64,000 nt of DNA from an uncultured Thermoanaerobaculia bacterium (GTDB lineage Bacteria > Acidobacteriota > UBA4820 > DSQY01). The translations under genes and the position numbers were made by a program. The stretch lies in contig CAZPSH010000002.1 in NCBI GenBank assembly GCA_964589625.1, positions 68,469-132,468 on the forward strand, read 5' to 3'. Below are positions 15,211-30,479 of the stretch, piece after piece (the first letter of the stretch is position 1; each line of letters starts with the position of its first letter). Below the pieces are notes generated by a model that worked only from the letters and a program-made list of their open reading frames with translations, ran no database searches and was not told where the DNA came from.

Positions 15211-15324
15211 CCCGGGACCCTCGATGCCCCCGACCTCAGGGGGCGGGGAAAAAGCGAGGGCGCCGCCCGGCGCCCTCGATCGTTTTCCCGGATTCTCCGC
15301 TTCCCTGGTTCCCTGTGTCCATCC

Positions 15325-16527: not shown

Positions 16528-16556
16528 GGTGCCACCCTCCCTTCACGAGGCCGGAC

Positions 16557-17699
16557 CTATCGGCCCGGGACGGCCCCCCTCGGAGGAACCACGGGGCCTG
16601 GAGGGCCCACGCGGCGGCTCTGGAGCGTCATATTGCGATTGATGAGCTCTTGCAGTTCGTCGGGCATGGACGACCGGGACAAGGCGGTTTCCAGGTCGAG
16701 CTTCCCCCGCAGGTAGAGGTCCGCGAGGGACTGGTTGAAGGTCTGCATCCCGCTACCGGTCTGGCCGGTCTGCATGATGGAGTAGATCTGGTGGATCTTG
16801 TCCTCCCGGATGAGGTTTCGGATGGCCGCGTTGGGCACCATGATCTCCACCGAGAGGCACCGGCCCTTCCCGTCGCGCGTGGGCAGGAGGGACTGGCACA
16901 GGATCCCCTGGAGGACAAAGGAGAGCTGGGTGCGAACCTGGGACTGCTGGTGGCTCGGGAAGACGTCCACGATGCGGTTGATGGTCTCCACCGTCGAGTT
17001 GGTGTGGAGGGTGGCGAAGGTGAGGTGCCCCGTCTCGGCGATCCTCAGGGCCGCCTCGATGGTCTCCAGGTCCCGCATCTCGCCGATCAGGACCACGTCG
17101 GGGTCCTGGCGGAGGATGCTCTTGAGCGCGTTCTTGAAGGAGTACGTGTCGGCGCCGATCTCCCGCTGGTTCACCACGCAGGCCTTGTGGGGGTGGAGGT
17201 ACTCCACAGGGTCTTCGATGGTGACGATGTGCTCGTGCCGCTCGCGGTTGACCTTGTCGATCATGGCGGCCAGGGTGGTGGACTTGCCCGAGCCCGTGGG
17301 CCCCGTCACCAGGATGAGCCCCCGCGGCCTCTCCGCCATCCGCTCGACCACGGAGGGCAGGCCGAGCTCCTGGAAGCCGCGAATCTCGTAGGGGATGGTC
17401 CGGAAGGCGCCGGCCACCGCCCCGCGCTGGCTGAAGATGTTTCCGCGGAAGCGGCTGAGGCCCTTGATCCCGAAGGAGAGGTCCAGCTCCAGGTTCTCCT
17501 CGAACTTGTGCTTTTGCTGGTCCGTGAGGATGGAGTAGCAGAGCTGCTTGGTCTCGGCGGCGCTGAGCGGCTTGATCCCCTCGATGGGCTGAAGCTTCCC
17601 GTGGATGCGCACCTGGGGCGGGGAGTTGACGGTCAGGTGGAGGTCCGAGCCCCCGTTCTCCACGAGGAACTTCAGGAGCTGGTGGATGGACACGCTCAT
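16557..17699 (-). CDS. pilT: twitching motility retraction ATPase PilT
   Basis: Walker A GPTGSGKST, Asp box, Walker B VVLIGEMRD, His box TLHTNS, PilT-specific AIRNLIRE motif; 380 aa. Confidence 0.9.
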   Translation of the reverse strand: MSVSIHQLLKFLVENGGSDLHLTVNSPPQVRIHGKLQPIEGIKPLSAAETKQLCYSILTDQQKHKFEENLELDLSFGIKGLSRFRGNIFSQRGAVAGAFRTIPYEIRGFQELGLPSVVERMAERPRGLILVTGPTGSGKSTTLAAMIDKVNRERHEHIVTIEDPVEYLHPHKACVVNQREIGADTYSFKNALKSILRQDPDVVLIGEMRDLETIEAALRIAETGHLTFATLHTNSTVETINRIVDVFPSHQQSQVRTQLSFVLQGILCQSLLPTRDGKGRCLSVEIMVPNAAIRNLIREDKIHQIYSIMQTGQTGSGMQTFNQSLADLYLRGKLDLETALSRSSMPDELQELINRNMTLQSRRVGPPGPVVPPRGAVPGR

Positions 17700-17711
17700 G
17701 GGCGTCCTCCG

Positions 17712-19427
17712 CTACAAAACGGTTTCCCGGACCACCTCGTCGATGGTCGTGATTCCCTTCGAGATCTTGATGAGGCCCGACCGCCGCAGCGTGATCATAC
17801 CCTCCTCGAGGGACTGGCGCTTGAGCTCCACGGCGTTGGCCCCCATGAGGACCATCTCCCGGAGCTGGTCGCTCATCTCCATGACCTCCATGAGGGCGAT
17901 GCGGCCCTTGTAACCGCTGTTGTTGCAGGTGGGACAGCCGCGTCCCTTGTACACCTTCGTCGTCTCCGCCTCCTCCTCCGTGTAGCCGAGGTCCAGCAGG
18001 GCCTTTCGGGGTATCTGCACCTCCTCCTTGCAGTCCCTGCAGATGCGCCGTATGAGGCGCTGGGCCTGGATGAGGTGAACGGAGGTGGCCACCAGGAAGG
18101 GCTCGATGCCCATGTTCATGAGCCGGCTGATGGTGGAGGGGGCGTCGTTGGTGTGGAGGGTGGAGAGGACCATGTGCCCGGTGAGGGCGGCCTTGACGCC
18201 GATTTCGGCCGTCTCGAAGTCGCGGATCTCTCCCACCAGGATGACGTTGGGGTCCTGCCGGAGGAAGGCCCTCAGGGCCGAGGCGAAGTTGAGGCCGATG
18301 CCCTCCTTCATCTGCACCTGGTTGCACCCCTGGATGTTGAACTCTACGGGGTCCTCGGCGGTCATGATGTTGGTCTCGGGCGTGTTCAAGCGGCCCACGG
18401 CGGAGTAGAGGGTATTGGTCTTGCCCGAGCCGGTGGGTCCCGTGACCAGCACCATGCCGTAAGGCTTCAGGATGGCCCGCTCGAACTTCTTGAGGCTCTC
18501 CTCCTCGAAGCCGAGCTGAGTCATGTCGAGCTTGAGGCCCTCCTTGTCGAGAAGCCGCATGACGATCTTCTCGCCGTATAGGGTGGGCACCGTGGAGACC
18601 CGGTAGTCGATCTCCTTGCTCTTGTTGTCGATCTTCATCCGCATCTTGATGCGCCCGTCCTGGGGGAGGCGTTTCTCGGCGATGTCCAGCTTCGCCAGGA
18701 TCTTGATGCGGGAGGCGATGGCCTCCTTGAGCTTCATGGGCGGGCGGAGGATCTCGTAGAGAACTCCGTCGATGCGGAACCGGACCCGAAAGTCCTTCTC
18801 GTAGGGCTCGATGTGGATGTCGCTGGCCCCCCGGCGGACGGCGTCCGTCATGACGACGTTGCAGAGTTTGACCACGGGGGCGTCCTGGCTGGCCGCCTCG
18901 AGGTCCTCGGCGGAGATCTCGCCGTCCTCCTCCTCGACTTCGAGGTCCGCCACCTCCTCCTTCTGGATCTCGTCCATGATCGCCTTGAGCTGGATGTCGT
19001 GGGTGGAGCCGTAGTACTTGGCGATGGCCTCCCGGATGGAGGCCTCGGAGGCCACCACGGGTTCCACTTGGTAGCCCGTGATGAACCGGATGTCGTCCAG
19101 GGCGAAGACGTTGGAAGGGTCGGCCATGGCCACCGTCAGGGTGGCCCCCGTGCGCTCGATGGGGATCACGAGGTATTTCTGGGCAACGTCTGAGGGGATG
19201 TGCTTGAGGACCGACTCGTCGATCTCAAAGTGCTCGAGATGGATGGCCGGCACCCCGTATTGCTCCGAGAGGAGCGAGGTGATGTCCTCCTCCTTGACGT
19301 GGCCGAGGCGGACGAGGTTGTAGCCGAGCTTGCCGCCGTTGCTCTTCTGGAGGGCCAGAGCCTCTTGCAGCTGCTGCTGCGAGATGAGTCCCACCTTGAG
19401 AAGCATCTCACCCAAGCGTTCAGCCAT
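17712..19427 (-). CDS. pilB: type IV pilus assembly ATPase PilB (GspE family)
   Basis: Start MAERLGEMLLKVGLISQQQL (N1 domain); Walker A GPTGSGKTNTLY, VILVGEIRD, TLHTNDA, C-terminal CPTC tetracysteine; upstream ORF extension is low-complexity. Confidence 0.9.
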   Translation of the reverse strand: MAERLGEMLLKVGLISQQQLQEALALQKSNGGKLGYNLVRLGHVKEEDITSLLSEQYGVPAIHLEHFEIDESVLKHIPSDVAQKYLVIPIERTGATLTVAMADPSNVFALDDIRFITGYQVEPVVASEASIREAIAKYYGSTHDIQLKAIMDEIQKEEVADLEVEEEDGEISAEDLEAASQDAPVVKLCNVVMTDAVRRGASDIHIEPYEKDFRVRFRIDGVLYEILRPPMKLKEAIASRIKILAKLDIAEKRLPQDGRIKMRMKIDNKSKEIDYRVSTVPTLYGEKIVMRLLDKEGLKLDMTQLGFEEESLKKFERAILKPYGMVLVTGPTGSGKTNTLYSAVGRLNTPETNIMTAEDPVEFNIQGCNQVQMKEGIGLNFASALRAFLRQDPNVILVGEIRDFETAEIGVKAALTGHMVLSTLHTNDAPSTISRLMNMGIEPFLVATSVHLIQAQRLIRRICRDCKEEVQIPRKALLDLGYTEEEAETTKVYKGRGCPTCNNSGYKGRIALMEVMEMSDQLREMVLMGANAVELKRQSLEEGMITLRRSGLIKISKGITTIDEVVRETVL

Positions 19428-19471
19428 TTCGCTCCCCGGTCCCCCTTTGGAAAACGTAGTGTACCACTTGA

Positions 19472-19502
19472 AGTGTAGTTTGCAGCTTGCTGCAAAGTCA
19501 AG
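19472..19502 (-). promoter_or_regulatory. candidate sigma-70 promoter (TTGACT-N18-TACACT) upstream of pilB with embedded palindrome TTGCAGC-AA-GCTGCAA
   Basis: Read on minus strand; 45-75 nt upstream of pilB start. Confidence 0.3.
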
Positions 19503-19524
19503 GGAATGACCTTCTATACCCATC

Positions 19525-19608
19525 GAGGGATTGGGGTGCCCTCGAGCCGAAGGGGAGAGGGCGCCGAGGGTGGGGTGAGGCTCCACGGGCTTTGCCCGTG
19601 GAGCGGGG
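19525..19608. repeat. GC-rich ~85-nt dispersed repeat, copy A (contains 12-bp perfect hairpin GGCTCCACGGGC-TTT-GCCCGTGGAGC)
   Basis: ~90% identical to reverse complement of ~26385..26480; translated junk ORFs on both copies share RDWGALEP...GWGEAP...PVERG. Confidence 0.7.
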
Positions 19609-19665
19609 CCCCGAAGGGAAGCCCTCGCACGGACGGGCTTCGCCTGCCGAGGGTCGCGATCTGCC

Positions 19666-20178
19666 TCAGAAGGGGGCGAAGCCGCTCTCGGACCAGAAGT
19701 CCGAGCGGATCCCGTTGTAGAGGGTCTGCAGGGCGTCGAGGTGCTGCTTCTCCCAGTCCGCCAGGAACTGGTAGAAGTCCCTCACTTCCGACTCGGTCGC
19801 GCCGCGGGCCGCGTCGCTGAAGTAGGCGATGGCCCTGGACTCGAGGGTCATGCCCACGGAAAGGACCCCCATTTCGAAATCCGCCCCCTGAGCCTGCTCG
19901 CGGAACTTGTCCGAGAAGATCGAGTCCGTAAAGGCCTTCAGATCGGGCGTCTTCCGCTCCAGGGCGAAGGCGGAGGTCCCCTTTTCCTCGTACCTCCCCA
20001 TGATGCCCTTCAAGTAGGCCTTGTGCTGGATCTCGTCGTTGGCCAGCTTTTCGAAGAGTTCCTGAACGGCCGGCTTGGTGGCCCGGTCCGCCGTCATGCT
20101 GTAGAAGGTGTACCCGTCCACTTCGATCTGGTAGGCCTTTCTCAGGACCTCCCGGATCGCATCCTTCGGTTCGGTCAT
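19666..20178 (-). CDS. rubrerythrin/ferritin-like domain protein
   Basis: 170 aa with E..E..H pairs (ANDEIQHKAY, ADWEKQHLDAL) typical of diiron ferritin-like fold. Confidence 0.65.
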   Translation of the reverse strand: MTEPKDAIREVLRKAYQIEVDGYTFYSMTADRATKPAVQELFEKLANDEIQHKAYLKGIMGRYEEKGTSAFALERKTPDLKAFTDSIFSDKFREQAQGADFEMGVLSVGMTLESRAIAYFSDAARGATESEVRDFYQFLADWEKQHLDALQTLYNGIRSDFWSESGFAPF

Positions 20179-20229
20179 CTCAGGCTCCTTCCCGGCGTAT
20201 CCTCCTCCGGGCTCCGGCGAATGCCGCGG

Positions 20230-20691
20230 TCAGGGCGCGAGGGCGTCCGTCCACGCGAAGGGCTCGGGCTTCTCGGCCGCGCGATCCGCCGGCACGTACT
20301 CCAGGGCGTGGGTGGGACAGAAGGGGACGCACTTGGGATCCCCGCCGCAAAGGTCGCACTTCTGGACGCAGTGGTAGGTTTCGTCCCAGAGCATGTTTCC
20401 GAACGGGCAGGCGGCCACGCACATGCGGCAGGAAATGCAGCGGTCCCTCGCCATTTCGATGGCGCCGGTCCGGTCGTTTCGGACGAGGGCCTCGGTGGGG
20501 CACACGGCGGCGCAGGCCGCGTCGTGGCACTGGAAACAGACGACGGGGGTCCCCAGCTCGGGGCCCCTCTTGAAGATGTTGATTCGGGTCTTGCTCGGCC
20601 TGCCCTCGCTTCCGTGGGCGAAGGCGCAGGCCAGCTCGCACTTGCCGCAGGCGATGCACCTTTCGATGACGACCCGGTAGATCCTGTCCAT
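20230..20691 (-). CDS. 4Fe-4S ferredoxin-type polyferredoxin (HycB/NuoI-like)
   Basis: Multiple CxxCxxCxxxCP motifs (CIACGKCELAC, CFQCHDAACAAVCP, CISCRMCVAACP, CDLCGG...CVPFCP). Confidence 0.75.
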   Translation of the reverse strand: MDRIYRVVIERCIACGKCELACAFAHGSEGRPSKTRINIFKRGPELGTPVVCFQCHDAACAAVCPTEALVRNDRTGAIEMARDRCISCRMCVAACPFGNMLWDETYHCVQKCDLCGGDPKCVPFCPTHALEYVPADRAAEKPEPFAWTDALAP

Positions 20692-20715
20692 GGATGGCTC
20701 CTTTGGCCCGCGGCG

Positions 20716-21489
20716 TCAGGGCGCCGTGCCGGCTCCCTCGGAAAGCTTGACGAACTGCCTCGCCATGTCGGTCCGCTTGCACGCGTCGCACAGGTCGAAG
20801 TAGGAGGACGGGACGCCCGTCCGCCCCGAGAAGTGGGCGGCCTCGTCGCGCGTGACGTGGGCCCGGCCGCACCGGAGGCAGCGGACCATCTCGAATTCCT
20901 TGCCCCAGATGGTTCTCTTGGCGTCCGAGGTCTCGTAGGGGATGCAGGAGGTCGGGCAGATTTCCGCGCAGGCGAGGCAGCCGATGCAGTCGGGCGGGGC
21001 CTCGTGGAAGGGCGGGGCGATCTCCCGTCCCGCCCCCCGATTCACGGAGGAGATGGCCGACACGCCGATGTGGTCGCAGACCCGCGTGCAAAGGCCGCAG
21101 AGGATGCAGTCCGTGGGGGCGGGATTGGGCTCGTAGGTCGTTCGCTCCAGGCCATGTTTTGCGGCCATTTGCTGGACGAGGGGCGTGTCGGGACACCGGG
21201 CCAGAAGCAGGTCGATGACGACCCTTCGCGTGGACCGCACGCGCTCCGTGTCCGTAAGGACGAGCAAGCCGTCCTCCGCGGGGAACATGCAGGACACGAC
21301 CATTTTGCACCAGCCGTCCCACTCCTTCCTCGTTACGTCCACGAGGCACATCCGGCACCCGCCCCAGGGCTCCAGGGCCGGGTGGTCGCACAGCGTGGGC
21401 ACTTCGAAACCCGCGGAGCGGATGGCATCCAGGAGGCGGGTCCCTTCGGGGACCTTCACGTTCTTGCCGTTGACGGTGAGCGTGATCAT
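20716..21489 (-). CDS. HoxU/NuoG-N-terminal-like [2Fe-2S]+[4Fe-4S] subunit of NAD(H) diaphorase module
   Basis: Start MITLTVNGKNVKV; 2Fe-2S ferredoxin fold Cys (CDHPAL...CRMC), NuoG-type CxxCxxxC...C clusters; ~257 aa; ATGA overlap with upstream gene; the 875-aa ORF in this frame is antisense read-through of the nuoF-like gene. Confidence 0.75.
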   Translation of the reverse strand: MITLTVNGKNVKVPEGTRLLDAIRSAGFEVPTLCDHPALEPWGGCRMCLVDVTRKEWDGWCKMVVSCMFPAEDGLLVLTDTERVRSTRRVVIDLLLARCPDTPLVQQMAAKHGLERTTYEPNPAPTDCILCGLCTRVCDHIGVSAISSVNRGAGREIAPPFHEAPPDCIGCLACAEICPTSCIPYETSDAKRTIWGKEFEMVRCLRCGRAHVTRDEAAHFSGRTGVPSSYFDLCDACKRTDMARQFVKLSEGAGTAP

Positions 21490-23387
21490 GGGGCGCCTCC
21501 TGTCCCCGAAGCCGCGGCGAGCTCGCGCTTGGGGAAGAACCTCACGGCGTCGGTGGGGCAGACCGTGTAGCAAGCGCCGCAGGAGATGCACTTGCCTTGA
21601 TGGATGACGTGAAGGGCCTTCTTCTCGCCCGTGATGGCGTCTACGGGGCAGGCCCGCGCGCAGGAGCCGCAGCCGTTGCAGGCCTCGGCGACGATTTCGT
21701 AGGCCGTGAGGTCCCGGCAGATTCCGGCCGGGCAAGCCTTGTGCTCCGCGTGGGCCATGTATTCGTCGCGGAAGTACCGCAGGGTCGAGAGGACGGGGTT
21801 GGGGGCGGACTTGCCGAGTTCGCACAGGCTGCCGAGCCGCATCCCCTCCGATAGCCGCTCGATGCGCCCGATGTCCCCGGGGACGCCACGGCCGGCGACG
21901 AGGCCGTCGAAGATGGCCTTCATCTGCTTGAGGCCCTCCCGGCAGGGGACGCACTTTCCGCAGGACTCCTCCATGAGGAAGGAAAGGAAGTAGCGGGCCA
22001 CGTCCACCATGCACGTCCGGTCGTCCATGACGATCATGCCGCCGGAGCCCATCATGGAGCCTGCCTCGGTGAGCTTCTCGTAGTCCACCGGGTAGTCGAG
22101 GTGGGACTCGGGAAGGCACCCTCCCGAGGGACCGCCCGTCTGGACCGCCTTGAAGGGCCGGTCCCCCAGGATCCCGCCTCCGATGTCGTAGATGATGTGG
22201 CGCAGGGTCGTGCCCATGGGCAGTTCGATGAGCCCCGTGTTCTTGACCTTGCCGACGAGGGAGAAGGCCTTCGTCCCTTTGGACTTGGCCGTGCCCATGG
22301 AGGCGAACCAGTCGCCCCCTTTGTGGAGGATGGCCCCCACGTCGGCCCAGGTCTCCACGTTGTTGAGGACCGTGGGGCAGTCGAAGACGCCCCGGTCCGT
22401 GGCGTGGACGTATTTCTGCCGGGGCTCGCCCGTCTTGCCCTCGATGGAGCGCATGAGGGCGGAGGACTCCCCGCAGACGAAGGCGCCGCCCCCGCGGGAG
22501 ATCCTCACGTCGAAATCGAATCCGGTTCCGAGGATGTTCTCCCCGAGAAGCCCTCGCCGCCGGGCCTGCTCGATGGCCAGCGTGAGGTGGACGACGGCCA
22601 GCGGGTACTCGTCGCGGACGTAGATGTACCCCTCGTGAGCGCCGATGGCGAAAGCGCCGATGACCATGCCCTCGAGTACCGAATGGGGGTCGCCCTCCAT
22701 GATGGAGCGGTCCTTGAAGGCTCCGGGGTCGCCCTCGTCGCCGTTGCAGAGGACGAACTTCCTCTCGCCCTTCGCCTTGCGGGCGGCCTTCCACTTGCGG
22801 GCCGTTTGGAAGCCGGCGCCCCCGCGGCCCCGCAGGCCGGAGCGCTCGACCTCCTCGATGACCTTCTCCGGGGTCAGGTCGAAGAGGGCGCGGACGAGGC
22901 CGGCGTAGGCCCCGTGGGCCAGCGCGTCGTCGAGGTCGGCCGGGTCCACCTTCCCGATGTTCCGCATGGCGACCCGCGTCTGGTTCTTGTAGAAGGGGAC
23001 GTCGCCGTACTTCTCGACGGCCTTCTTGGTGACCGGGTCCTTGTAGAGGAGCTTGGACAAGGCCCCGCCGCCGCCCGTCGCCTTGTCGAGGATTTCGCCA
23101 ACGTGCTCCGGTTTGACCTTCGTGTAGAGGATGCCCTCGGGCTGGATGACCACCAGCGGGCCCTTTTCGCAGAAACCGTGACAGCCCGTCTTCTTGGTGA
23201 ACAGGCCCACGGAGGCCGGTAGCCCTCGGGACTCGACCTCCTTCTGGAAGGCCTCCGCCACGCCCTGGCTCCCGTTGGCCAGGCAGCCCGTTCCGCAGCA
23301 GACGAGCACCTCGATCTTCCGCCCATCGGCCGCCCGGCGGCACGCCGCGACGGCCTCCTCGAACCGGGCCCTGGAGTCAATGCGCAT
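21486..23387 (-). CDS. NuoF/HoxF-like NAD(H)-binding FMN/[4Fe-4S] subunit (51-kDa family) with N-terminal thioredoxin-like and C-terminal 2x[4Fe-4S] domains
   Basis: GGGAGFQTARKW (FMN site), GDEGDPGAF (NADH site), ESCGKCVPCREG (N3 cluster), C-terminal CNGCGSCARACP / CISCGACYTVCP. Confidence 0.85.
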   Translation of the reverse strand: MRIDSRARFEEAVAACRRAADGRKIEVLVCCGTGCLANGSQGVAEAFQKEVESRGLPASVGLFTKKTGCHGFCEKGPLVVIQPEGILYTKVKPEHVGEILDKATGGGGALSKLLYKDPVTKKAVEKYGDVPFYKNQTRVAMRNIGKVDPADLDDALAHGAYAGLVRALFDLTPEKVIEEVERSGLRGRGGAGFQTARKWKAARKAKGERKFVLCNGDEGDPGAFKDRSIMEGDPHSVLEGMVIGAFAIGAHEGYIYVRDEYPLAVVHLTLAIEQARRRGLLGENILGTGFDFDVRISRGGGAFVCGESSALMRSIEGKTGEPRQKYVHATDRGVFDCPTVLNNVETWADVGAILHKGGDWFASMGTAKSKGTKAFSLVGKVKNTGLIELPMGTTLRHIIYDIGGGILGDRPFKAVQTGGPSGGCLPESHLDYPVDYEKLTEAGSMMGSGGMIVMDDRTCMVDVARYFLSFLMEESCGKCVPCREGLKQMKAIFDGLVAGRGVPGDIGRIERLSEGMRLGSLCELGKSAPNPVLSTLRYFRDEYMAHAEHKACPAGICRDLTAYEIVAEACNGCGSCARACPVDAITGEKKALHVIHQGKCISCGACYTVCPTDAVRFFPKRELAAASGTGGAP

Positions 23388-23862
23388 GGGACTTGCCCTC
23401 CTGGCCCAGGAGCTTGGGCATCTTCGCCGGCTTGGCGTTCCCGTGGTACTTGTCTCCGACGATGAGGACGGGCGCCATGGCGCAGGCCCCCACGCAGTTC
23501 ACGGTCTTCAGCGTGAATCCCATGTCGGGCGTTGTTTCGTCCGGGCCGATGGAAAGCAGGCGCTGGACCTCCTCCACGAGTTGGCCGGCGCCCCGGATGT
23601 GGCAGGCCGTGCCCGTGCACACCTTAATAAGGGTCCTCCCCTGGGGCTTGAGGGAGAAGGCCTTGTAGAAGGTGGACACGGAGAAGACCTTGGCCAGGGG
23701 TACGTCCAGGACCTCCGCCACCTTGCAGAGCACGTCGCAGGGCAGGTAGTTGTAGGCGCGGTGCACGTCTTGGAGAACCTGGATGAGGGAGGCTTCCTCC
23801 CTCGGATACCTCTCCAGGATCTCCTCCACCGGGTGGAGGTCCTGGCAGGATGCTTGGCTCAT
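23377..23862 (-). CDS. NuoE/HoxE-like [2Fe-2S] thioredoxin-like subunit (24-kDa family)
   Basis: 161 aa; Cys ligands C..C...CxxxC (LPCDVLC...CTGTACHIRGA...CVGACAMAP); ATG overlaps porG TGA stop (ATGA). Confidence 0.8.
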   Translation of the reverse strand: MSQASCQDLHPVEEILERYPREEASLIQVLQDVHRAYNYLPCDVLCKVAEVLDVPLAKVFSVSTFYKAFSLKPQGRTLIKVCTGTACHIRGAGQLVEEVQRLLSIGPDETTPDMGFTLKTVNCVGACAMAPVLIVGDKYHGNAKPAKMPKLLGQEGKSHAH

Positions 23863-24413
23863 GGCTGTCCTTCCTTCATCTCCGCGCCGAGGTCGTACCC
23901 CCTCTTCAGCGCCACGAGGTTGGCCTCGATGACCTTGGGTTTGCTGGCGAAGGTTTCCCGGATCAGGGACTCGAGTTCCTCGAGGGCCACCGCGTTGGTG
24001 GCGCCGATGTAGGCGCCCAGGGCGACCATGTTGGCCCCCTTGGGGTTCTTGAGCTCGTTGGCCACGTCGTTGGCGGGAACCTTGAGAACGCGGACGTCTT
24101 TCCTCGACGGCTCCCGGTTGATCAGGGACGAGTTGACCAACAGGAGCCCGCCCGGCCGGAGCATCGGTTCGAACTTCTCCAAGGACGGCAGGTTCATGGC
24201 CAGGACCGCCTTCGGGGATTGGATGACGGGAGAGCCCACGGGGCGGTCCGAGATGACCACCGTGCAGTTGCACGTTCCCCCGCGCATCTCGGGCCCGTAG
24301 GAGGGAAGCCAGGACACCTCCTTGCCCTGGTGCATCCCGGCATAGGCCAGCATCTTCCCGATGAGAAGGATGCCTTGTCCGCCGAAGCCCGCCATGATCA
24401 CGTCATTCTGCAT
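23859..24413 (-). CDS. porG: 2-oxoacid:ferredoxin oxidoreductase gamma subunit
   Basis: Start MQNDVIMAGFGGQGILLIGKMLA, typical POR/KOR gamma N-terminus; overlaps porB 3' end. Confidence 0.8.
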   Translation of the reverse strand: MQNDVIMAGFGGQGILLIGKMLAYAGMHQGKEVSWLPSYGPEMRGGTCNCTVVISDRPVGSPVIQSPKAVLAMNLPSLEKFEPMLRPGGLLLVNSSLINREPSRKDVRVLKVPANDVANELKNPKGANMVALGAYIGATNAVALEELESLIRETFASKPKVIEANLVALKRGYDLGAEMKEGQP

Positions 24414-25203
24414 GGCCGCTCCCCCGCCTTCCCCGTCCGAGCGGGCCGGGCGCCCGGTCCTCGCCGCCGGGGGTCTTGAAGGTCCCAAGCGGGTAGTAGG
24501 GAAGCATGTTCTTTTCCAGCCAGGCCGTGGCCTCCGCGGGAGGGATCCCCCAGTTCGTGGGGCACGTGGAGAGGATCTCCACGAGGGAGAAGCAGACGTT
24601 CTCCTTCTGGTACCGGAAGGCCGTCCGGAGCATCTCCTTGGCCGCCACCGCGTGGAGGGGCGAGTGGACGGAGGCCCGCGCCACGTAGGCCGGCGTCCTC
24701 AGCGTGCTGACGAGTTCGGCCACGCGAATGGGCCATCCGGCCAGGTTCACGTCCCGGCCCAGGGGGCACGTGGTGGCCACCTGGCCGGGCATGGTGGTGG
24801 GTGCCATTTGTCCGCCCGTCATGCCGTAGATCGCGTTGTTCACGAAGACCACGGTGACCTTCTCGCCTCGGTTGGCGCAGTGGATGATCTCGGCCATCCC
24901 GATGGAGGCCAGGTCGCCGTCGCCCTGGTACGAGAAGACGATGAGGTCGGGGCGGGCCCGTTTCACGCCCGTGGCCACCGCCGGCGCCCGGCCGTGGGAG
25001 GCCTCGTGGAAGTCCGTGGCGAAGTAGTTGTAGGCGAGCACGGAGCATCCGACGGGTGCGATGCCCACGGTCCGTTCCCGCAGGCCCAATTCGTCGATGA
25101 CTTCCCCCACGAGCCGGTGGATGACGCCGTGGGTGCACCCGGGGCAGTAGTGGGTCGTCACATCCGCGAGGGCTTCGGGTCGCCGGAAGACGGTCTCAGC
25201 CAT
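24403..25203 (-). CDS. porB: 2-oxoacid:ferredoxin oxidoreductase beta subunit (TPP-binding)
   Basis: CPGCTHG Cys motif, GDGD...N TPP-binding motif (SYQGDGDLASIGMAE...NNAIYGMTGGQ). Confidence 0.85.
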   Translation of the reverse strand: MAETVFRRPEALADVTTHYCPGCTHGVIHRLVGEVIDELGLRERTVGIAPVGCSVLAYNYFATDFHEASHGRAPAVATGVKRARPDLIVFSYQGDGDLASIGMAEIIHCANRGEKVTVVFVNNAIYGMTGGQMAPTTMPGQVATTCPLGRDVNLAGWPIRVAELVSTLRTPAYVARASVHSPLHAVAAKEMLRTAFRYQKENVCFSLVEILSTCPTNWGIPPAEATAWLEKNMLPYYPLGTFKTPGGEDRAPGPLGRGRRGSGHAE

Positions 25204-26290
25204 GGGCCACCTCCCCGGACCGGCCGGCGGCGATGGCCCGGATCTGTTCGGCCACCTCCTCGGGCGCGGCGAGCATCCCGCCCTGGCGTCCGAAGAAGTG
25301 AACGGGCCGCGTTCCCAGGAGGGCGAGCTGCACGTCCTCCACCATTTGGCCGGTGGAGAGCTCCACGACGAGCACGGCCTTGGCCTTCTGGGCGGCGCGG
25401 CGGACCTGTTCGTAGGGGTAGGGGAAAAGCGTTACGGGGCGGACCATGGCGGCCTTCACGCCTTCCGCGCCCAAGTCCTCGATGGCCGTGGAGCAGACCC
25501 TCGCCACGGTCCCGTAGGCCACCACGAGGACGTCGTAGTCCGCCTCGGTGCCGTATTCGACCCAGCGGACCTCGTCGCGGACCATGGCCGCGTACTTGGC
25601 TTGGAGCTTCTGGTTGTGGTGCTCGAGAACCTGCGGGTCCAGGAAGAGGGAGTTGATGATGTTGGTGGCCCTGCCGCCCTTGCAACCGGTGGCCGCCCAG
25701 TCCTTGGGGGGGAGGGGCTTGCAGGGCACCCGGCCGGTCCGAAATTCCACGGGCTCCATCATCTGGCCGATGAGGCCGTCTCCGAGCACCATGACCGGAT
25801 TCCTGTAGTAATCCGCCAGGTCGAAGGCGTCCTGGACCAGGTCCGCGGCTTCCTGGACCGACCAGGGCGCCAGCACCAGAAGCCTGTAGTCGCCGTGGCC
25901 GCCTCCCTTCGTGGCCTGGAAGTAGTCCGCCTGGCTCGGGAGGATGCCTCCCAGCCCGGGGCCGGCGCGCATGATGTTCACGACGACGCAGGGAAGCTCG
26001 CTTCCGGCGAGGTAGGAAATTCCTTCCTGCATGAGGGAGATCCCCGGGGAGCTCGAGGAGGTGAACACCCGCTCCCCGCTCCCCGCCGCCCCGTACAGCA
26101 TGTTGGAGGCCGCCACTTCGCTCTCCGCCTGCACGAAGGTGCCGCCCACCTGGGGCAGGCGGTGGGACATGTACTCGGGGATTTCGTTCTGGGGCGTGAT
26201 GGGGTAGCCGAAGAACAGCCGGCATCCCGCCTGGATGGCGGCCTCACCGATGGCCTCCGAGCCCTTCATCAGTTTCTTGGCCATGGCCAC
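25196..26290 (-). CDS. porA: 2-oxoacid:ferredoxin oxidoreductase alpha subunit
   Basis: 364 aa, KGSEAIGEAAIQAGCRLFFGYPITPQNEI N-terminus typical of POR/KOR alpha; stop overlaps porB start. Confidence 0.85.
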   Translation of the reverse strand: MAMAKKLMKGSEAIGEAAIQAGCRLFFGYPITPQNEIPEYMSHRLPQVGGTFVQAESEVAASNMLYGAAGSGERVFTSSSSPGISLMQEGISYLAGSELPCVVVNIMRAGPGLGGILPSQADYFQATKGGGHGDYRLLVLAPWSVQEAADLVQDAFDLADYYRNPVMVLGDGLIGQMMEPVEFRTGRVPCKPLPPKDWAATGCKGGRATNIINSLFLDPQVLEHHNQKLQAKYAAMVRDEVRWVEYGTEADYDVLVVAYGTVARVCSTAIEDLGAEGVKAAMVRPVTLFPYPYEQVRRAAQKAKAVLVVELSTGQMVEDVQLALLGTRPVHFFGRQGGMLAAPEEVAEQIRAIAAGRSGEVAHG

Positions 26291-26384
26291 GCTCCTTCAG
26301 TCGCGAATTCCGCGGTCAAACGGCTCTTCCTTACGAGAAGCGCCCGCGTACACCGCGGAATACAAGTCTTCTCCTCGACGGGAA

Positions 26385-26480
26385 GGGGCCGTTCCCTCCC
26401 CGCTCCACGGGCCAAGCCCCTGGAGCTTCACCCCACCCTTGGCGCCCGCTCGCCTCCGGCTCGAGGGCTCCCCAATCCCT
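26385..26480. repeat. GC-rich dispersed repeat, copy B (inverted orientation relative to copy A; approximate ends)
   Basis: Reverse complement aligns with 19525..19608 at ~90% identity including hairpin (one stem mismatch); lies in unusual 270-bp gap between porD and porA. Confidence 0.65.
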
Positions 26481-26562
26481 TGGCGGGTGAAGGCGATCTC
26501 TTTCGTGCGTTGTCGATTCATTTTTCCGCCGTTCCTTTCCAACTTCCAACGCGGGATTGAGG

Positions 26563-26796
26563 TCAATAGGCGAAGTAGTGGTACAGGGTGCCGTGGACGC
26601 GCATCTCGATGGCCACGTCGGGGCAGGTGATGCAGCAAAGGCGGCACCCGATGCAGCGCTTCTGCTCCTGCATCCTCGCGTAGAAATAGCCCTTGGAGTT
26701 GATGTCCCGGGCCATTCCGAGGATCTTCTGGGGGCAGGCCTGCACGCAGAGTTCGCACCCCTTGCAGCGTTCGGGGTCGATCACGATTTGGGGCAC
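26563..26796 (-). CDS. porD: 2-oxoacid:ferredoxin oxidoreductase delta subunit (2x[4Fe-4S] ferredoxin)
   Basis: GTG start preceded by AAGGAG (7 nt); VPQIVIDPERCKGCELCVQACP ... CIGCRLCCITCP; 77 aa. Confidence 0.7.
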   Translation of the reverse strand: MPQIVIDPERCKGCELCVQACPQKILGMARDINSKGYFYARMQEQKRCIGCRLCCITCPDVAIEMRVHGTLYHYFAY

Positions 26797-26876
26797 GCGG
26801 GACTCCTTATCAATCTGCCGCGGGGCGGGTCTGCCGCGGCCTGTGCTGTCTGGCGCCGGCCCGCGCCGGGGCCTCG

Positions 26877-27641
26877 TCAGCCCACCACGAAGAGCGGCCC
26901 GACGGTCCTCTGGGTGCGGTCGGACTCGAAGGGCGGCTTCACGAATCTCCTCACGGGAAGCACCGGACAGCCCGGGTTTCCCTTCTCCACTTCCTCCGCC
27001 AGCTCCAGGGGCGCGGCCACGGCACGGACCTCCAAGGAGAGGCTCCTGCCGACCTCCCGGGCCAGACGCAGGCCGTCCAGGATCACCTCCGCCGTGGATT
27101 CGCCCATGAGGTGGGTGTTGGAGAGAAGCCCCGTGGTCTTCAGCCGGGACGTCGCCTCGATCTCGCGGGCCATGGACACGGCCGAGGTCACATCGGGGGT
27201 GAAGGGCCTGCGAAAGTTGAGCACGATCAGGAGGTCCGTCTCCGACTCCGGAACGGCGTCGCTCACGGAGGCCAGCGCACGGACCCCCGTTTCGTCGCCC
27301 CCCGCGTCGATGAGAACCTTCCGGGTCGGGTCTTGGAGCCGCGTCCGGACCTGGGGCAGGACAATGGGCAGATCGGAGGAGAAGTACTCGCCCATGGGAG
27401 CCACCAGTTCCACGTTCGCGGCGGACAGGATGTCCCGTGCGGACCTCGACCGCAGGTACGGCTTCACCACGTCCAGGTCGAGGAGGGACACGGGAAACCC
27501 GGCGCCCGCCAGTTCCATGGCGGCGGACAGGGTGATCTCCGTCTTGCCGCTGCCGAAGTGGCCGCACAGGATCGTGACCCGTCGCGAAAACACGCGGGCG
27601 AAGGTTTCGCCCGCCGGACGGACTTTTAGAACCTGCCCCAT
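26877..27641 (-). CDS. P-loop NTPase of unknown function
   Basis: Start MGQVLKVRPAG; Walker A GHFGSGKTE; ~254 aa; upstream 84 codons of ORF are Pro/Arg-rich junk. Confidence 0.45.
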   Translation of the reverse strand: MGQVLKVRPAGETFARVFSRRVTILCGHFGSGKTEITLSAAMELAGAGFPVSLLDLDVVKPYLRSRSARDILSAANVELVAPMGEYFSSDLPIVLPQVRTRLQDPTRKVLIDAGGDETGVRALASVSDAVPESETDLLIVLNFRRPFTPDVTSAVSMAREIEATSRLKTTGLLSNTHLMGESTAEVILDGLRLAREVGRSLSLEVRAVAAPLELAEEVEKGNPGCPVLPVRRFVKPPFESDRTQRTVGPLFVVG

Positions 27642-27807
27642 GCGGGCCGCGCGCGATTCGTCCACCGTCGTGTGCCTCTCCGGCCGGAAAGCGGCCTCGA
27701 AGAAGGTGTCCAATATAGTCCGCGGCGGCCCAGGGTCAAAAACCGCGCGCGGGTCCCCATGGGCAGGAAGGGCCAAATGCCCCACACGCCGTCCGGCTTT
27801 GGCTCTG

Positions 27808-29097
27808 TTAGCGGGGCGGGGCGGGAAGGGTGAAGGAGAGGACGAATCCCCGGCCCTCCCGGGCGATCCCCGCCAGGACTCGGGTGGCGCCATCCGAGCG
27901 GAAGGCGCACAGGCAGGTGGCGACGGCCTCCAACGGGGGCGAGATCCAGACCCTCTCCCAGATCCTTCCGTCGACCAGGTCGAAGGCTTCGATCCGGGGG
28001 GAAGTTCCCCCCGTGGAAACGAAAAGGGTGGAACCGGCGGCGGCCAGGGCGCCGGCGCCTTCCGCGGGCCCTGGGATTCGGGCCAGGTCGGAGCCGCGCA
28101 CGGCCGTCGTGTTCCCGCCGGGATCCAGCAGGAGAAAGTAAGTGCCGCCCGGTCCCACGGCTTTCACCATCTGGACGAAAGAGCCCAAGTCCCTTCCGGC
28201 GTAGTCAAAAAGGAGGAACGCTCCGGCCTCGGCGTCCCACTGGGCGGAGAGGAATTGGGACGTCCGTGGGCCCATGGGGAATCCTTCGATCTTGCCGCCC
28301 GGCGCGAACATCCCGCCGCTTCCCCTCGCGAACCAGCGGCTATCGGATGTTTCCGGTTCCAAGAGGGCAAGCCGCGCAGGGTCGGCCTCGTCCCAGACGA
28401 GGCCGGCGGCGCCAGGCGAGGCCTCTTGGTTCCAGCGTTGCAGGACCGTTCCGTCGGCCGGGTCCGTGCGGAGGAGGTCCCGGTTTCCCAGAATCCAAAG
28501 CCGGGCCGGAGGCCCTGCTTCCCAGGCCAGTGCCCGGATGGGCCCTTCGATGGTGGCGATGACCGAACCCGTCTCCGCGGGCGCCGCGGTTCGGGTCGGG
28601 GCCCGGAAAACCAGGGGGGGCCGGATCTCGAAGCGGAGGGTGGCCAAGCCCGGGCCTTTTCGAAGTTCCACGTGGAGGGACCTCAGGGCGCCCTCCGGGG
28701 TGCTTTCCGGGGACAGCCAAACGAGGGAGGAAAACGAAGCGGGATCGAGCTGAGAGTAGGCTTCCGGCGCCCCGCCCGCGGTGACGCCCAGTTCGGCGAG
28801 CGTCAGCGCCTTGGGAAGGCTCCTGGCCAGGTCCGCGCCCAAGGTCGCGAGGCTGGGCTCCTCCGGGTTCCAACCGACGGCCGTGGGGTTCGATTGGGTT
28901 CCGTTGATCCGACCGAGCAGTTCCCTCGCCAGGGCGCGGGCTACGGCAGGGGTTCCCCCCTCGGAGCTCAAAACGGTGGAAGGCGCCTCGGGTCTTTCGG
29001 CGGGCGGAGTAGAGGGAGGAATTCGGACGCCGGCCGGGGCGCACCCGAGGAGGAGCGCGGAGGCGGCCGCCGCGATCCATGCGGAGGCGGGCTTCAC
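27808..29097 (-). CDS. lipoprotein, unknown function (possible beta-propeller)
   Basis: Signal peptide + lipobox ALLLGC; 429 aa; no recognisable catalytic motif. Confidence 0.45.
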   Translation of the reverse strand: MKPASAWIAAAASALLLGCAPAGVRIPPSTPPAERPEAPSTVLSSEGGTPAVARALARELLGRINGTQSNPTAVGWNPEEPSLATLGADLARSLPKALTLAELGVTAGGAPEAYSQLDPASFSSLVWLSPESTPEGALRSLHVELRKGPGLATLRFEIRPPLVFRAPTRTAAPAETGSVIATIEGPIRALAWEAGPPARLWILGNRDLLRTDPADGTVLQRWNQEASPGAAGLVWDEADPARLALLEPETSDSRWFARGSGGMFAPGGKIEGFPMGPRTSQFLSAQWDAEAGAFLLFDYAGRDLGSFVQMVKAVGPGGTYFLLLDPGGNTTAVRGSDLARIPGPAEGAGALAAAGSTLFVSTGGTSPRIEAFDLVDGRIWERVWISPPLEAVATCLCAFRSDGATRVLAGIAREGRGFVLSFTLPAPPR

Positions 29098-30479
29098 GGG
29101 GTCCTCCCCGCGTACTCCGAGAGGCGGCGCGCCACGTCACGCTCGTCGCCTGGCAAGAGCGTGCGAAGGTGGATCAAGATCCGGCCTTCCGACGTCTGGG
29201 TCACCACCGGCGGGTCGCCGCCCGTGCGGAGGTGGCGTTCGAGGCTTTCGGGGTCCCCGAACCGGGGGACCACGGCCATGGCGGGAGAGGGAAGGGCCGT
29301 GAGGGGCGCCGAACCGGCTCCCGTGCGGCCCTCCGCTTCGACCACCTCCAGGCGGAACCGGCCGGGGCAGGCCTTCGACACGCGGCGCAGGAGCGCCCTG
29401 GCCCGCCGTCTCAGCTCCCCCGCCTCCCTGTCGAGGAGGGCCAGGGCCGGGACCTCCTTTCGCCTCCCCCGGCGGTACCGGTCCACCACCGCGGCGAGCA
29501 GCGAGTAGGTCACCTTGTCCACCCGGAGGGCCCTCAAAAGGGGGTTGGAGCGGAAGGCCGACACGCGTTCCGGAGCCACCAGGAGGATTCCCGCTTGGCA
29601 GGCCCCGAAGAGCTTGTCGCCGCTGAAGCAGAGCGCGTCGGGGCGGGCGGCGAGGGCCGAGGTCACCGGCGGCTCATCGGGCAGGCGCGAGCCGGCGACG
29701 GGGTCCACCAGGCCCGATCCAAGGTCGAAGCCGACGGGCATACCCAGCTCGCGGCCCAACTCCACGAGGCTCTCCAGGCTCACTTCTTCCGTGAAGCCGA
29801 GGATCCGGTAGTTGGACGTGTGGACCTTCAGCATGAGGGCGCTCTGGGGGCCGGCGGCGCGACGGTAGTCGGAGAGGCGCGTGCGGTTGGTGGTGCCCAC
29901 CTCCCTCAAGAGGGCCCCCGAGGCCTTCATGACCTCGGGCATGCGGAAGCCCCCCCCGATTTCCACGAGTTCGCCCCGGCTCACCAGGGTCTCGCGGCCC
30001 GAGGAAAGCGTGTTCAGGAGGAGCAGGGTGGCCGCCGCGTTGTTGTTCACGACCACCACGCCGTACTCCGTGTCGAACAGGCCCTGAAAGGCGCGCTCCA
30101 GCGCAGCGTCCCGGTGGCCACGGTGGCCGGCTTCCAGGTCCATTTCCAGGTCCACGTATCCCCCGAGGACCCCTTCGATTTCCCGAAGGAGCGGCCGGGA
30201 AAGGGGGGCCCTGCCGAGGTTTGTATGGAGGACAACGCCCGTGGCGTTGACGACCCGGCGGAGGGGCGGGCGGAAGGTCTCCGCCAGACGGAGGGCGGCC
30301 TCTCGGATCACGTCTTCGGGGCGGGGGACCTCGCCTGAATTCCTCCAGCGCGCCACGCCGCCATCGAGAGTCTGGCGCAGAGCCCGCTTCGTCTCGGCAG
30401 GGCCGTACTCCCGGGCCAGGTCCAGGGCGGCCGGCTCGGCAAGGAGCCGATCCATCCGGGGCGGGCGTTCCGGGATCAT
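29094..30479 (-). CDS. selA: L-seryl-tRNA(Sec) selenium transferase
   Basis: Start MIPERPP (ATGA overlap with upstream HAD gene); 461 aa; PLP-lysine region FSGDKLFGACQAGIL and SelA-like N-terminal architecture. Confidence 0.75.
   Translation of the reverse strand: MIPERPPRMDRLLAEPAALDLAREYGPAETKRALRQTLDGGVARWRNSGEVPRPEDVIREAALRLAETFRPPLRRVVNATGVVLHTNLGRAPLSRPLLREIEGVLGGYVDLEMDLEAGHRGHRDAALERAFQGLFDTEYGVVVVNNNAAATLLLLNTLSSGRETLVSRGELVEIGGGFRMPEVMKASGALLREVGTTNRTRLSDYRRAAGPQSALMLKVHTSNYRILGFTEEVSLESLVELGRELGMPVGFDLGSGLVDPVAGSRLPDEPPVTSALAARPDALCFSGDKLFGACQAGILLVAPERVSAFRSNPLLRALRVDKVTYSLLAAVVDRYRRGRRKEVPALALLDREAGELRRRARALLRRVSKACPGRFRLEVVEAEGRTGAGSAPLTALPSPAMAVVPRFGDPESLERHLRTGGDPPVVTQTSEGRILIHLRTLLPGDERDVARRLSEYAGRTP

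Follow-up and report, generated by a model that had tools for sequence, protein, structure and literature searches.

A ten-gene operon on the minus strand of contig CAZPSH010000002.1, from an uncultured Thermoanaerobaculia bacterium (Acidobacteriota), appears to encode one soluble multi-subunit enzyme of the Bfu (HydABC-like) family, a 2-oxoacid:NAD+/ferredoxin oxidoreductase, and its helper proteins. We put the probability of this reading at roughly 55%. The operon lies in a stretch of 64,000 nt with about 68% G+C, called the window here, and all coordinates are positions in it. It joins the four subunit genes (delta, alpha, beta, and gamma) of a 2-oxoacid:ferredoxin oxidoreductase (OFOR) to a NuoE/NuoF/HoxU-like trio resembling the bifurcating module BfuCBA; genes for a polyferredoxin and a ferritin-like diiron protein follow, and a gene for a P-loop nucleoside triphosphatase (NTPase) precedes them all. 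The observations that carry the reading are the gene content, the conservation of the cofactor ligands, the homology to WorA, WorB, and WorS of the bifurcating enzyme WorABCSL, and the strict co-occurrence of genes that overlap one another.

What we infer beyond these observations is a physical complex, its electron path, bifurcation, the kind of substrate, and the roles of the helpers. The four-subunit OFOR, dependent on thiamine pyrophosphate (TPP), would catalyze the oxidative decarboxylation of a 2-oxoacid to acyl-CoA and CO2, and the electrons would exit through the [4Fe-4S] cluster of beta and the two [4Fe-4S] clusters of delta. They would then cross a WorS-type polyferredoxin with four [4Fe-4S] clusters, docked, like WorS in WorABCSL, on the helix at the C-terminus of BfuA, run through the BfuA clusters to the flavin/Fe-S core of BfuBC, and there be split between NAD+ and ferredoxin (Fd). 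The net reaction would be 2 oxoacid + 2 CoA + NAD+ + 2 Fd(ox) -> 2 acyl-CoA + 2 CO2 + NADH + 2 Fd(red). It would be reversible, and 2-oxoacid synthesis driven by NADH and reduced ferredoxin would also be possible. As for the helpers, the diiron protein would scavenge peroxide or oxygen with electrons drawn off the Fe-S chain, and the NTPase would assist assembly. A narrower proposal, which we hold tentatively and rate below even odds, is that Thermoanaerobaculia have a new class of Bfu enzyme, in which an Oor/Vor-type OFOR, recruited independently of the Dehalococcoides Por-Bfu, is plugged in through a WorS-type wire and comes with its own diiron peroxidase and an assembly NTPase of the SIMIBI class.

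Gene content and conservation of the operon

Stop-to-stop frames with candidate starts place all of these genes on the minus strand (Table 1); a GGAG-type Shine-Dalgarno sequence lies 5' of each start, and Pfam and NCBIfam back each domain assignment. A first-pass annotation of this DNA had described nine genes at 19666-26796, from OFOR delta to the diiron protein. All nine are present in the order it gave, but it overlooked the NTPase gene upstream, with which the conserved unit comes to ten. It had also noted that adjacent genes, from alpha through to the HoxU-like one, all overlap by ATGA or more, and this is what the frames give: 8 nt for alpha/beta, 11 nt for beta/gamma, 4 nt (ATGA) for gamma/bfuC, 11 nt for bfuC/bfuB, and 4 nt (ATGA) for bfuB/bfuA. 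Gaps separate delta from alpha (278 nt), bfuA from the polyferredoxin gene (24 nt), and the latter from the diiron protein gene (51 nt). Judging by the overlaps, the OFOR and bfu genes are probably cotranscribed.

Table 1. Genes of the operon and associated sequence features; positions are those of the window.
Feature	Position	Strand	Remarks
P-loop NTPase	27593-26877	-	238 aa from GTG start; alternative ATG at 27641
OFOR delta	26796-26563	-	77 aa, GTG start
OFOR alpha	26284-25196	-	362 aa
OFOR beta	25203-24403	-	266 aa
OFOR gamma	24413-23859	-	184 aa
NuoE-like protein (BfuC)	23862-23377	-	161 aa
NuoF-like protein (BfuB)	23387-21486	-	633 aa
HoxU-like protein (BfuA)	21489-20716	-	257 aa
Polyferredoxin (fdx)	20691-20230	-	153 aa
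Ferritin-like diiron protein (rbr)	20178-19666	-	170 aa
Delta-alpha intergenic gap	26285-26562	-	278 nt, with hairpin-forming repeat
Sigma-70-like promoter match (TTGACC-16-TATATT)	27712-27739	-	in the intergenic region of about 200 nt 5' of the NTPase gene

A scan of species-representative genomes with the NuoF-like protein gave 263 relatives, and the best 80 (70-98% identity) were analyzed; nearly all are metagenome-assembled genomes of Acidobacteriota/Thermoanaerobaculia, and some are labeled Myxococcales or Deltaproteobacteria. Gene order was checked by tblastn of every window protein against the relatives' loci, and a gene was counted as expected only at loci whose contig extends to its position. 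On this basis, order and strand are identical at all of the loci. The counts of present over expected are 56/56 for the NTPase, 63/63 for delta, 64/64 for alpha, 67/67 for beta, 68/68 for gamma, 74/74 for bfuC, 68/68 for bfuA, 65/65 for the polyferredoxin, and 57/59 for the diiron protein, and the full ten-gene block is found in at least 56 species-level genomes. Since the best 80 relatives share the same order and strand wherever the contig extends, the ten-gene arrangement is not due to chance. The co-occurrence of por genes with nuoEF-hoxU, proposed in the first-pass annotation as a check, comes to 100%, with no exception over 56-74 species. The overlaps are kept to differing degrees: alpha/beta in 96% of relatives, bfuC/bfuB in 94%, bfuB/bfuA in 82%, and gamma/bfuC in 66%, with the gamma/bfuC spacing under 30 nt in 93%. 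Past bfuA, the median gaps are 26 nt (to the polyferredoxin gene) and 69 nt (from there to the diiron protein gene). The cluster is not mentioned in published genome papers on these Acidobacteriota.

The BfuABC module

The Bfu family was defined by Schut et al. (2022; PMC9304861, Suppl. Fig. 9) through BfuB cluster sites that are missing from non-bifurcating homologues, and the cluster sites that mark the family are present in BfuB, BfuC, and BfuA of this operon. In BfuB, Pfam recognizes an N-terminal thioredoxin-like [2Fe-2S] domain, a flavin mononucleotide (FMN)/NADH core with a [4Fe-4S] cluster, an SLBB domain, and a C-terminal 2x[4Fe-4S] domain, and there is also a Cys3His site. The first-pass annotation had suggested looking in the NuoF-like protein for additional Fe-S domains associated with bifurcation; three such additions are present (N-terminal [2Fe-2S], Cys3His, and C-terminal 2x[4Fe-4S]), and together they make the HydB/BfuB architecture. 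Across 80 orthologues the ligands are invariant: C30/31, C35, C69, and C73; C476, C479, C482, and C522; the Cys3His site C459, H546, C552, and C557; C570-C580; and C600-C610. The best PDB match of BfuB is WorB (9mqx_B, E 8e-232), followed by bifurcating NiFe-HydB and FeFe-HydB, with NuoF of complex I far behind.

BfuC matches Pfam 2Fe-2S_thioredx (E 4.8e-48) and holds one [2Fe-2S] cluster, of which C82, C87, C123, and C127 are invariant among orthologues. BfuA is a WorA-like protein of Type 2, with a [2Fe-2S] cluster, two [4Fe-4S] clusters, a Cys4 zinc-finger motif, and a C-terminal helix, and it has no catalytic domain. It matches WorA over its full length (9mqx_A, E 5e-50, 37% identity), and WorA is also its top Foldseek match; in a homologue search, the matches listed are close acidobacterial relatives with at least 62% identity. 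C34, C45, C48, C67, C128-C138, and C168-C178 are invariant. Beyond the zinc finger runs a tail of about 20 residues that aligns with the C-terminus of WorA, and AlphaFold2 (AF2) predicts a helix at 235-251 after the zinc finger (pLDDT about 90). In one subclade (loci L018, L020, L023, L028, L032, L037, L042, and L043) all four zinc-finger Cys are lost jointly, the CxxC...CxxC of BfuA residues 204-237 reading DPxTG...SSDxxK. The Zn site seems dispensable, because the flanking sequence and the C-terminal tail are retained where the Cys are lost.

By its sequence, then, the NuoEF/HoxU-like trio is of the BfuCBA type, and none of the additional Fe-S sites known from bifurcating HydB is missing. 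The first-pass description of it as a stand-alone HydBC/HoxEFU-like module with no hydrogenase catalytic subunit was borne out: no catalytic gene of a hydrogenase, formate dehydrogenase, or aldehyde oxidoreductase (AOR) adjoins the operon, and none of these is among the window genes scanned (about 40 of an estimated 50-55). Public annotation calls the operon's genes NADH dehydrogenase, hydrogenase diaphorase subunits, or hypothetical protein, and these names invite wrong metabolic inference.

The polyferredoxin and the OFOR

The polyferredoxin, with four [4Fe-4S] clusters and 16 invariant cluster Cys, has WorS as its best PDB match (9mqx_E; residues 1-142 of 152, E 3.6e-37, 44% identity), with AorA (8c0z_C) next. 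Polyferredoxin, the name given to it at first pass, is correct as far as it goes, but the protein is no generic polyferredoxin; it is a wire subunit of the WorS/AorA type. In WorABCSL, the C-terminal helix of WorA recruits WorS, and electrons pass from WorS cluster S4 to WorA cluster A4 (PMC12318220). The polyferredoxin also aligns with positions 11-140 of NCBIfam PadI, the beta subunit of the NADH-dependent phenylglyoxylate dehydrogenase, in its N-terminal polyferredoxin domain (E 5e-29), and OFOR beta aligns with profile positions 226-366, in the C-terminal half. In the PadI fusion, this type of polyferredoxin and an OFOR beta are physically linked in an NAD-reducing OFOR. By analogy, we propose that the polyferredoxin is the wire between the OFOR and BfuA.

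All four OFOR subunits are recognizable. Delta is a Fer4_7 protein in Pfam, with two [4Fe-4S] clusters whose eight Cys are invariant in 65 orthologues; its best NCBIfam matches, OorD and OGOR_delta, fall below the cut-off. Alpha has Pfam POR_N and PFOR_II domains and a YPITP motif. Beta, with Pfam TPP_enzyme_C, has the TPP-binding region and the Cys for a [4Fe-4S] cluster (C20, C23, C53, C204, and C214 are invariant), and gamma matches Pfam POR (E 1.4e-44). The only NCBIfam model that alpha passes is PRK07119, "3-methyl-2-oxobutanoate dehydrogenase subunit VorB" (NF005507; 533 bits, cut-off 399). Against PorA models it scores 73-97 bits, with PorA_Arch at 97 for a cut-off of 550. Its best PDB matches are 1yd7, a Pyrococcus 2-ketoacid OFOR (E 2e-55), and 8ys5, a 2-oxoglutarate synthase (OGOR), and the PorA structure 9bt4 is weaker (E 6e-17); alpha is thus nearer to OGOR/KGOR structures than to PorA. 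The gene order delta-alpha-beta-gamma is one that we take to be that of oorDABC.

The first-pass annotation was therefore right about a four-subunit OFOR, but its por label, with pyruvate as substrate, is unsupported, because the OFOR belongs to a different subfamily, with an oorDABC-like order and an alpha in the VorB model, and its subunits have low identity to those of a classical Por-Bfu cluster (see below). The data do not fit a pyruvate-type (PorABDG) OFOR, given the VorB-model alpha, the weaker PorA match in the PDB, and the differing gene order. For the specificity determinants of OGOR, the literature gave nothing usable.

The diiron protein and the NTPase

The last gene of the operon encodes a four-helix bundle that matches Pfam Rubrerythrin PF02915 (54.9 bits vs a cut-off of 22.8, E 1.5e-14). 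Its E/ExxH/E/ExxH ligand set (E18, E49, H52, E113, E143, and H146) is intact, in motifs conserved at 95% or more. Within its 170 aa there is no rubredoxin domain, no second domain, and no Cys; the first-pass "rubrerythrin" thus stands as a rubrerythrin-family diiron domain (an "erythrin") but not as a complete rubrerythrin. No close solved relative was found. It resembles the ferritin domain of NCBIfam PRK12775, which is fused there to an Nfn-like (NfnAB-like) module. A role as a peroxide or oxygen scavenger fed from the Fe-S chain is plausible.

The NTPase gene is the conserved first gene of the block, lying 11-84 nt upstream of delta in the relatives. The protein has Walker A and B motifs that do not vary, and its invariant stretches include GHFGSGKTE (Walker A), DLDxVKPY, DxGGD, and NTHL. 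It matches Pfam ParA/CbiA weakly and no NCBIfam model, and public annotation has it as "hypothetical protein". Its AF2 model (pLDDT 86.7) matches, with Foldseek probability 1.0 and TM about 0.5, signal recognition particle GTPases, MinD, ATPase-type HypB, and AF2382. These matches place it as a SIMIBI-class P-loop NTPase that no named subfamily matches. Membership in the G3E group (UreG/HypB-GTPase) was considered for its GSGKT and GGD motifs, and the sequence and fold searches returned the general SIMIBI class only. Our guess, by analogy with CooC and HypB, is that it acts as an assembly or maturation factor.

Weighing a single bifurcating complex against other readings

The alternative that survives best is that one operon encodes two enzymes, which we regard as unlikely. 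A ferredoxin-reducing OFOR would work beside a separate complex of BfuABC, polyferredoxin, and erythrin, the two linked by free ferredoxin; the second enzyme would be a "Rub-Bfu"-like peroxidase running on NADH and reduced ferredoxin, with H2O2 or O2 at the diiron site as its third substrate, and would shield the oxygen-sensitive OFOR. The OFOR is indeed complete with a ferredoxin-like delta, a diiron protein with intact ligands ends the operon in 57/59 relatives, and spacing is looser past bfuA (+24 and +51 nt in this operon, with medians of 26 and 69 nt among the relatives). Moreover, Schut et al. predicted a Rub-Bfu with rubrerythrin adjoining bfuB, and PRK12775 joins the same ferritin domain to NfnAB-like modules. 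However, the diiron protein gene is the least tightly linked of the block, with 2 relatives lacking it, whereas OFOR and bfu genes are linked without exception, and gamma overlaps bfuC. The published Rub-Bfu has no BfuA, whereas a full WorA-like BfuA with a docking helix is encoded here, and the PadI fusion ties this polyferredoxin type to an OFOR beta.

Next comes a single complex that does not bifurcate, which we consider distinctly improbable. The enzyme would act simply as a 2-oxoacid:NAD+ oxidoreductase, an OFOR equivalent of AorABC or phenylglyoxylate dehydrogenase, and the extra BfuB clusters would be wiring or remnants. Such NAD-linked enzymes exist among both OFORs (Pad) and AORs (AorABC), and 2-oxoacid oxidation is exergonic with NAD+ alone. 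Near the NADH/FMN site, Schut et al. (PMC9304861) identified the bifurcation-specific residues Ala202, Met204, and Phe282 (A. mobile numbering). The equivalents of Ala202 and Phe282 are present in BfuB and are Bfu-like, but the equivalent of Met204 is Lys in 79/80 orthologues, the state of the non-bifurcating Nqo1 and HoxF and of NuoF. The motif bearing this Lys, residue 225 of BfuB, is DEGDPGAFKDRS (BfuB residues 217-228, window 22703-22738), whereas the 16 Bfu enzymes that Schut et al. list all have Met at 204, as does the one classical Por-Bfu cluster that we examined (locus L081). On the other side, every ligand of the three extra BfuB sites (N-terminal [2Fe-2S], Cys3His, and C-terminal 2x[4Fe-4S]) is invariant in 80 species, which argues for function, and characterized non-bifurcating homologues lack these sites. 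WorABCSL, the closest solved relative, bifurcates despite a very low-potential substrate.

The Lys at position 204 is one of several points that weigh against a single bifurcating complex. The zinc-finger Cys of BfuA are kept in only 56% of orthologues and lost in about 44%. The OFOR, having its own delta, could work alone with free ferredoxin, and an internal signal could lie in the 278 nt that separate delta from alpha in this genome. The energetic rationale is also indirect, because at about -500 mV a 2-oxoacid needs no bifurcation to reduce both acceptors. For the single bifurcating complex it counts that the best solved relative of BfuB, of BfuA, and of the polyferredoxin is each time a subunit of WorABCSL (9MQX), which is known biochemically to bifurcate.

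That the NuoE/NuoF/HoxU-like trio is instead the diaphorase of a hydrogenase, formate dehydrogenase, or AOR encoded elsewhere, and that its place next to the OFOR is incidental, is very improbable indeed: the module does serve such enzymes in other organisms, the polyferredoxin is homologous to the AOR partner WorS, and the window covers only 64 kb of the genome, but the window genes scanned include no such catalytic gene, the relatives have no conserved flanking gene and 100% OFOR linkage, and a start/stop overlap joins OFOR gamma to bfuC.

Sequence signals and flanking genes

The sigma-70-like match 5' of the NTPase gene agrees with the consensus at 10/12 positions and is a candidate for the operon promoter; it is a consensus match only, and 2 such sites occur in 10 kb vs 0.6 expected. 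Between this site and the Walker A codons, at 27594-27614 on the minus strand and overlapping the predicted NTPase start, lies a GC-rich 9-bp hairpin with GTGTTTTCGC after it. Possible functions are as a structured 5' leader or as a weak terminator for the gene upstream. A search for intrinsic terminators with a U-tract gave none within the operon or past its end, and no Rex operator (TTGTGAA-N4-TTCACAA, up to 3 mismatches) occurs in the window.

In 64 relatives the delta-alpha gap ranges from 7 to 346 nt and is 26 nt or less in half, so its length is not conserved. In this genome it has a fold z-score of -2.4; Rfam gave nothing credible over 19000-29500, and the gap matches no known riboswitch or leader. 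Within it, 26398-26488 forms an inverted repeat pair with 19518-19608 in the spacer between the diiron protein gene and pilB, the two copies being 88% identical over 91 nt. The element is GC-rich and hairpin-forming, with a perfect 11-bp stem GCUCCACGGGC/GCCCGUGGAGC in the 19518-19608 copy. The pair brackets the operon from alpha to the diiron protein gene, the 19518-19608 copy lying directly 3' of the last gene, and there are no further copies in the window. Most related loci, whose delta-alpha gap is about 10 nt, lack the repeat. Comparison of these loci marks the gap as a lineage-specific insertion; the 91-nt repeat may be an insertion of the REP/MITE (repetitive extragenic palindrome/miniature inverted-repeat transposable element) kind, and its 19518-19608 copy may serve as a transcript end or stabilizer.

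A hydrogenase or formate dehydrogenase gene just outside the operon would have spoken against the first-pass reading, and none was found there; the neighbors are pil genes, SelA, and an ATPase of the type II secretion system (T2SS). Downstream, on the minus strand at 12210-19586, is a type IV pilus cluster (pilB, pilT, pilC, a PilS-like kinase, and a sigma-54 response regulator), and adjacency to pilB is retained only in the closest relatives (L001-L012). Upstream of the ten-gene block come an unknown protein, SelA, and the T2SS ATPase. No gene flanking the block is common to more than 25 of the 56 loci. The selenocysteine synthase gene selA lies two genes upstream of the operon (29094-30704, minus strand), and the organism therefore makes selenoproteins, none of which was seen in the window. 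The ATPase at 31503-33437 (minus strand), also upstream, is a second one of the T2SS-E/MshE type. Farther away, 57365-62221 (plus strand) encodes a protein of 1618 aa that contains six or more PKD repeats and has a third-position G+C content (GC3) of 0.95, in the window's sole strongly negative GC-skew stretch (-0.18 to -0.21).

Comparison with known systems

OFOR-Bfu enzymes are known so far only as a bioinformatic prediction, and no bifurcating enzyme is known to use a 2-oxoacid as its third substrate. The predicted case is Por-Bfu, an uncharacterized bifurcating OFOR-Bfu deduced from gene clusters of Dehalococcoides mccartyi and syntrophic Proteobacteria by Schut et al. (2022; PMC9304861), who cite co-expression of the Dehalococcoides cluster as support. 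The idea in the first-pass annotation of a POR and an NAD(P)H module joined in a supercomplex or a bifurcating exchanger is thus partly supported, as an OFOR-Bfu enzyme, and had been published earlier; pyruvate is the part left without support. As in Por-Bfu, the genes of the four OFOR subunits come immediately before bfuC-bfuB-bfuA within a single operon, and the Type-2 BfuA is small, carries [2Fe-2S], two [4Fe-4S], and a Cys4 zinc finger, and lacks a catalytic domain. The order of the OFOR genes differs, however, being delta-alpha-beta-gamma here and gamma-delta-alpha-beta in Por-Bfu. The operon adds a WorS-type polyferredoxin, a C-terminal helix on BfuA, a diiron protein, and a P-loop NTPase, whereas Por-Bfu has the zinc finger but neither helix nor WorS homologue (PMC12318220). 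The hosts also differ, Acidobacteriota here and Chloroflexi or Proteobacteria there.

With the Dehalococcoides BfuB fragment from the supplement of Schut et al. as query, a search returned mainly short fragments, at no more than 73% identity, and did not retrieve the Dehalococcoides cluster. Five of its matches were examined in context: the classical Por-Bfu cluster L081, a bfuC-bfuB pair with no bfuA or adjacent catalytic partner, a contig-edge fragment, a carbon monoxide dehydrogenase/acetyl-CoA synthase (CODH/ACS) locus, and an FeFe-hydrogenase locus. In L081 the order is porG-D-A-B-bfuC-bfuB-bfuA followed by glpX, there is no polyferredoxin, diiron protein, or NTPase, and BfuA ends at the zinc finger. 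The glpX gene (fructose-1,6-bisphosphatase) fits the gluconeogenic role proposed in the literature. The bfuB of L081 (8669-10357 of that locus) has an in-frame TAG (...RDL*VDFDEL...) and ends after the CPAGVC motif, without the C-terminal 2x[4Fe-4S]. Identity to L081 is 25-34% for the OFOR subunits (alpha vs PorA 25%; alpha 362 vs 391 aa, beta 266 vs 325 aa) and 41-64% for the Bfu subunits (BfuB 57-64%, BfuC 46%, BfuA 41%), so a different OFOR subfamily sits here on a related Bfu core.

Rub-Bfu, predicted for Thermotogae (Schut et al. 2022), likewise has a rubrerythrin-family diiron protein encoded with a BfuBC core. It differs in having no BfuA and no OFOR, with the rubrerythrin gene directly after bfuB, whereas here the diiron protein gene follows those of BfuA and the polyferredoxin, and its product has no rubredoxin domain. 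The closest solved system is WorABCSL, the bifurcating tungsten-containing AOR of Acetomicrobium mobile (PDB 9MQX; PMC12318220), of which homologues of WorA, WorB, and WorS are present; the WorC counterpart is BfuC, matched by NuoE-type Pfam and NCBIfam models only. The catalytic part is different, a tungstopterin WorL there and a TPP-dependent OFOR here, with no AOR domain in the operon or the window genes scanned. HoxEFU and NuoEFG share homology with the trio in NuoE, NuoF, and the NuoG N-terminus, but of the N-terminal [2Fe-2S], Cys3His, and C-terminal 2x[4Fe-4S] sites of BfuB, HoxF and NuoF have none.

Two further systems send 2-oxoacid electrons to pyridine nucleotides. The Pad system has a different, non-Bfu NAD-binding subunit. 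PadEFGHI (NCBIfam NF045762/64/66) is similarly of OFOR type, with electrons going to NAD+, and its beta subunit PadI fuses homologues of the polyferredoxin and of beta; yet all the scores fall far below the equivalog cut-offs (PadG 57.9 vs 700; PadI 43.5 for beta and 101.3 for the polyferredoxin vs 700; PadE 56.6 vs 300), and the resemblance is architectural only. Pyruvate:NADP+ oxidoreductase (PNO) performs the same overall chemistry, from 2-oxoacid to pyridine nucleotide. It has a fused reductase domain of the flavodoxin/ferredoxin-NADP+ reductase (FNR) type, unrelated to NuoF. The first-pass comparison of the operon with PNO is thus sound as a functional analogy and fails as homology in the NAD(P) module.

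Among AORs, WorSL pairs with AorC in a non-bifurcating enzyme or with WorABC in a bifurcating one, and by analogy an OFOR with a polyferredoxin would pair with the Pad NAD subunit or, here, with BfuABC. Set beside the predicted Por-Bfu, this operon is, from its encoded proteins, a distinct variant, with another OFOR subfamily, a WorS-like wire, a BfuA helix, a diiron protein, and an NTPase. As such it would give OFOR-Bfu a second example, one that was put together independently and is very strictly conserved, and its solved homologues in WorABCSL make the proposed wiring directly testable. If the reading is right, half of the 2-oxoacid electrons would be sent straight to NADH in these anaerobes, which would change the modeling of carbon and electron flow in Thermoanaerobaculia, abundant in marine sediments; and the WorA-helix/WorS "plug" would be a general adaptor, reused for modules as chemically unrelated as the tungstopterin AOR and the TPP-dependent OFOR.

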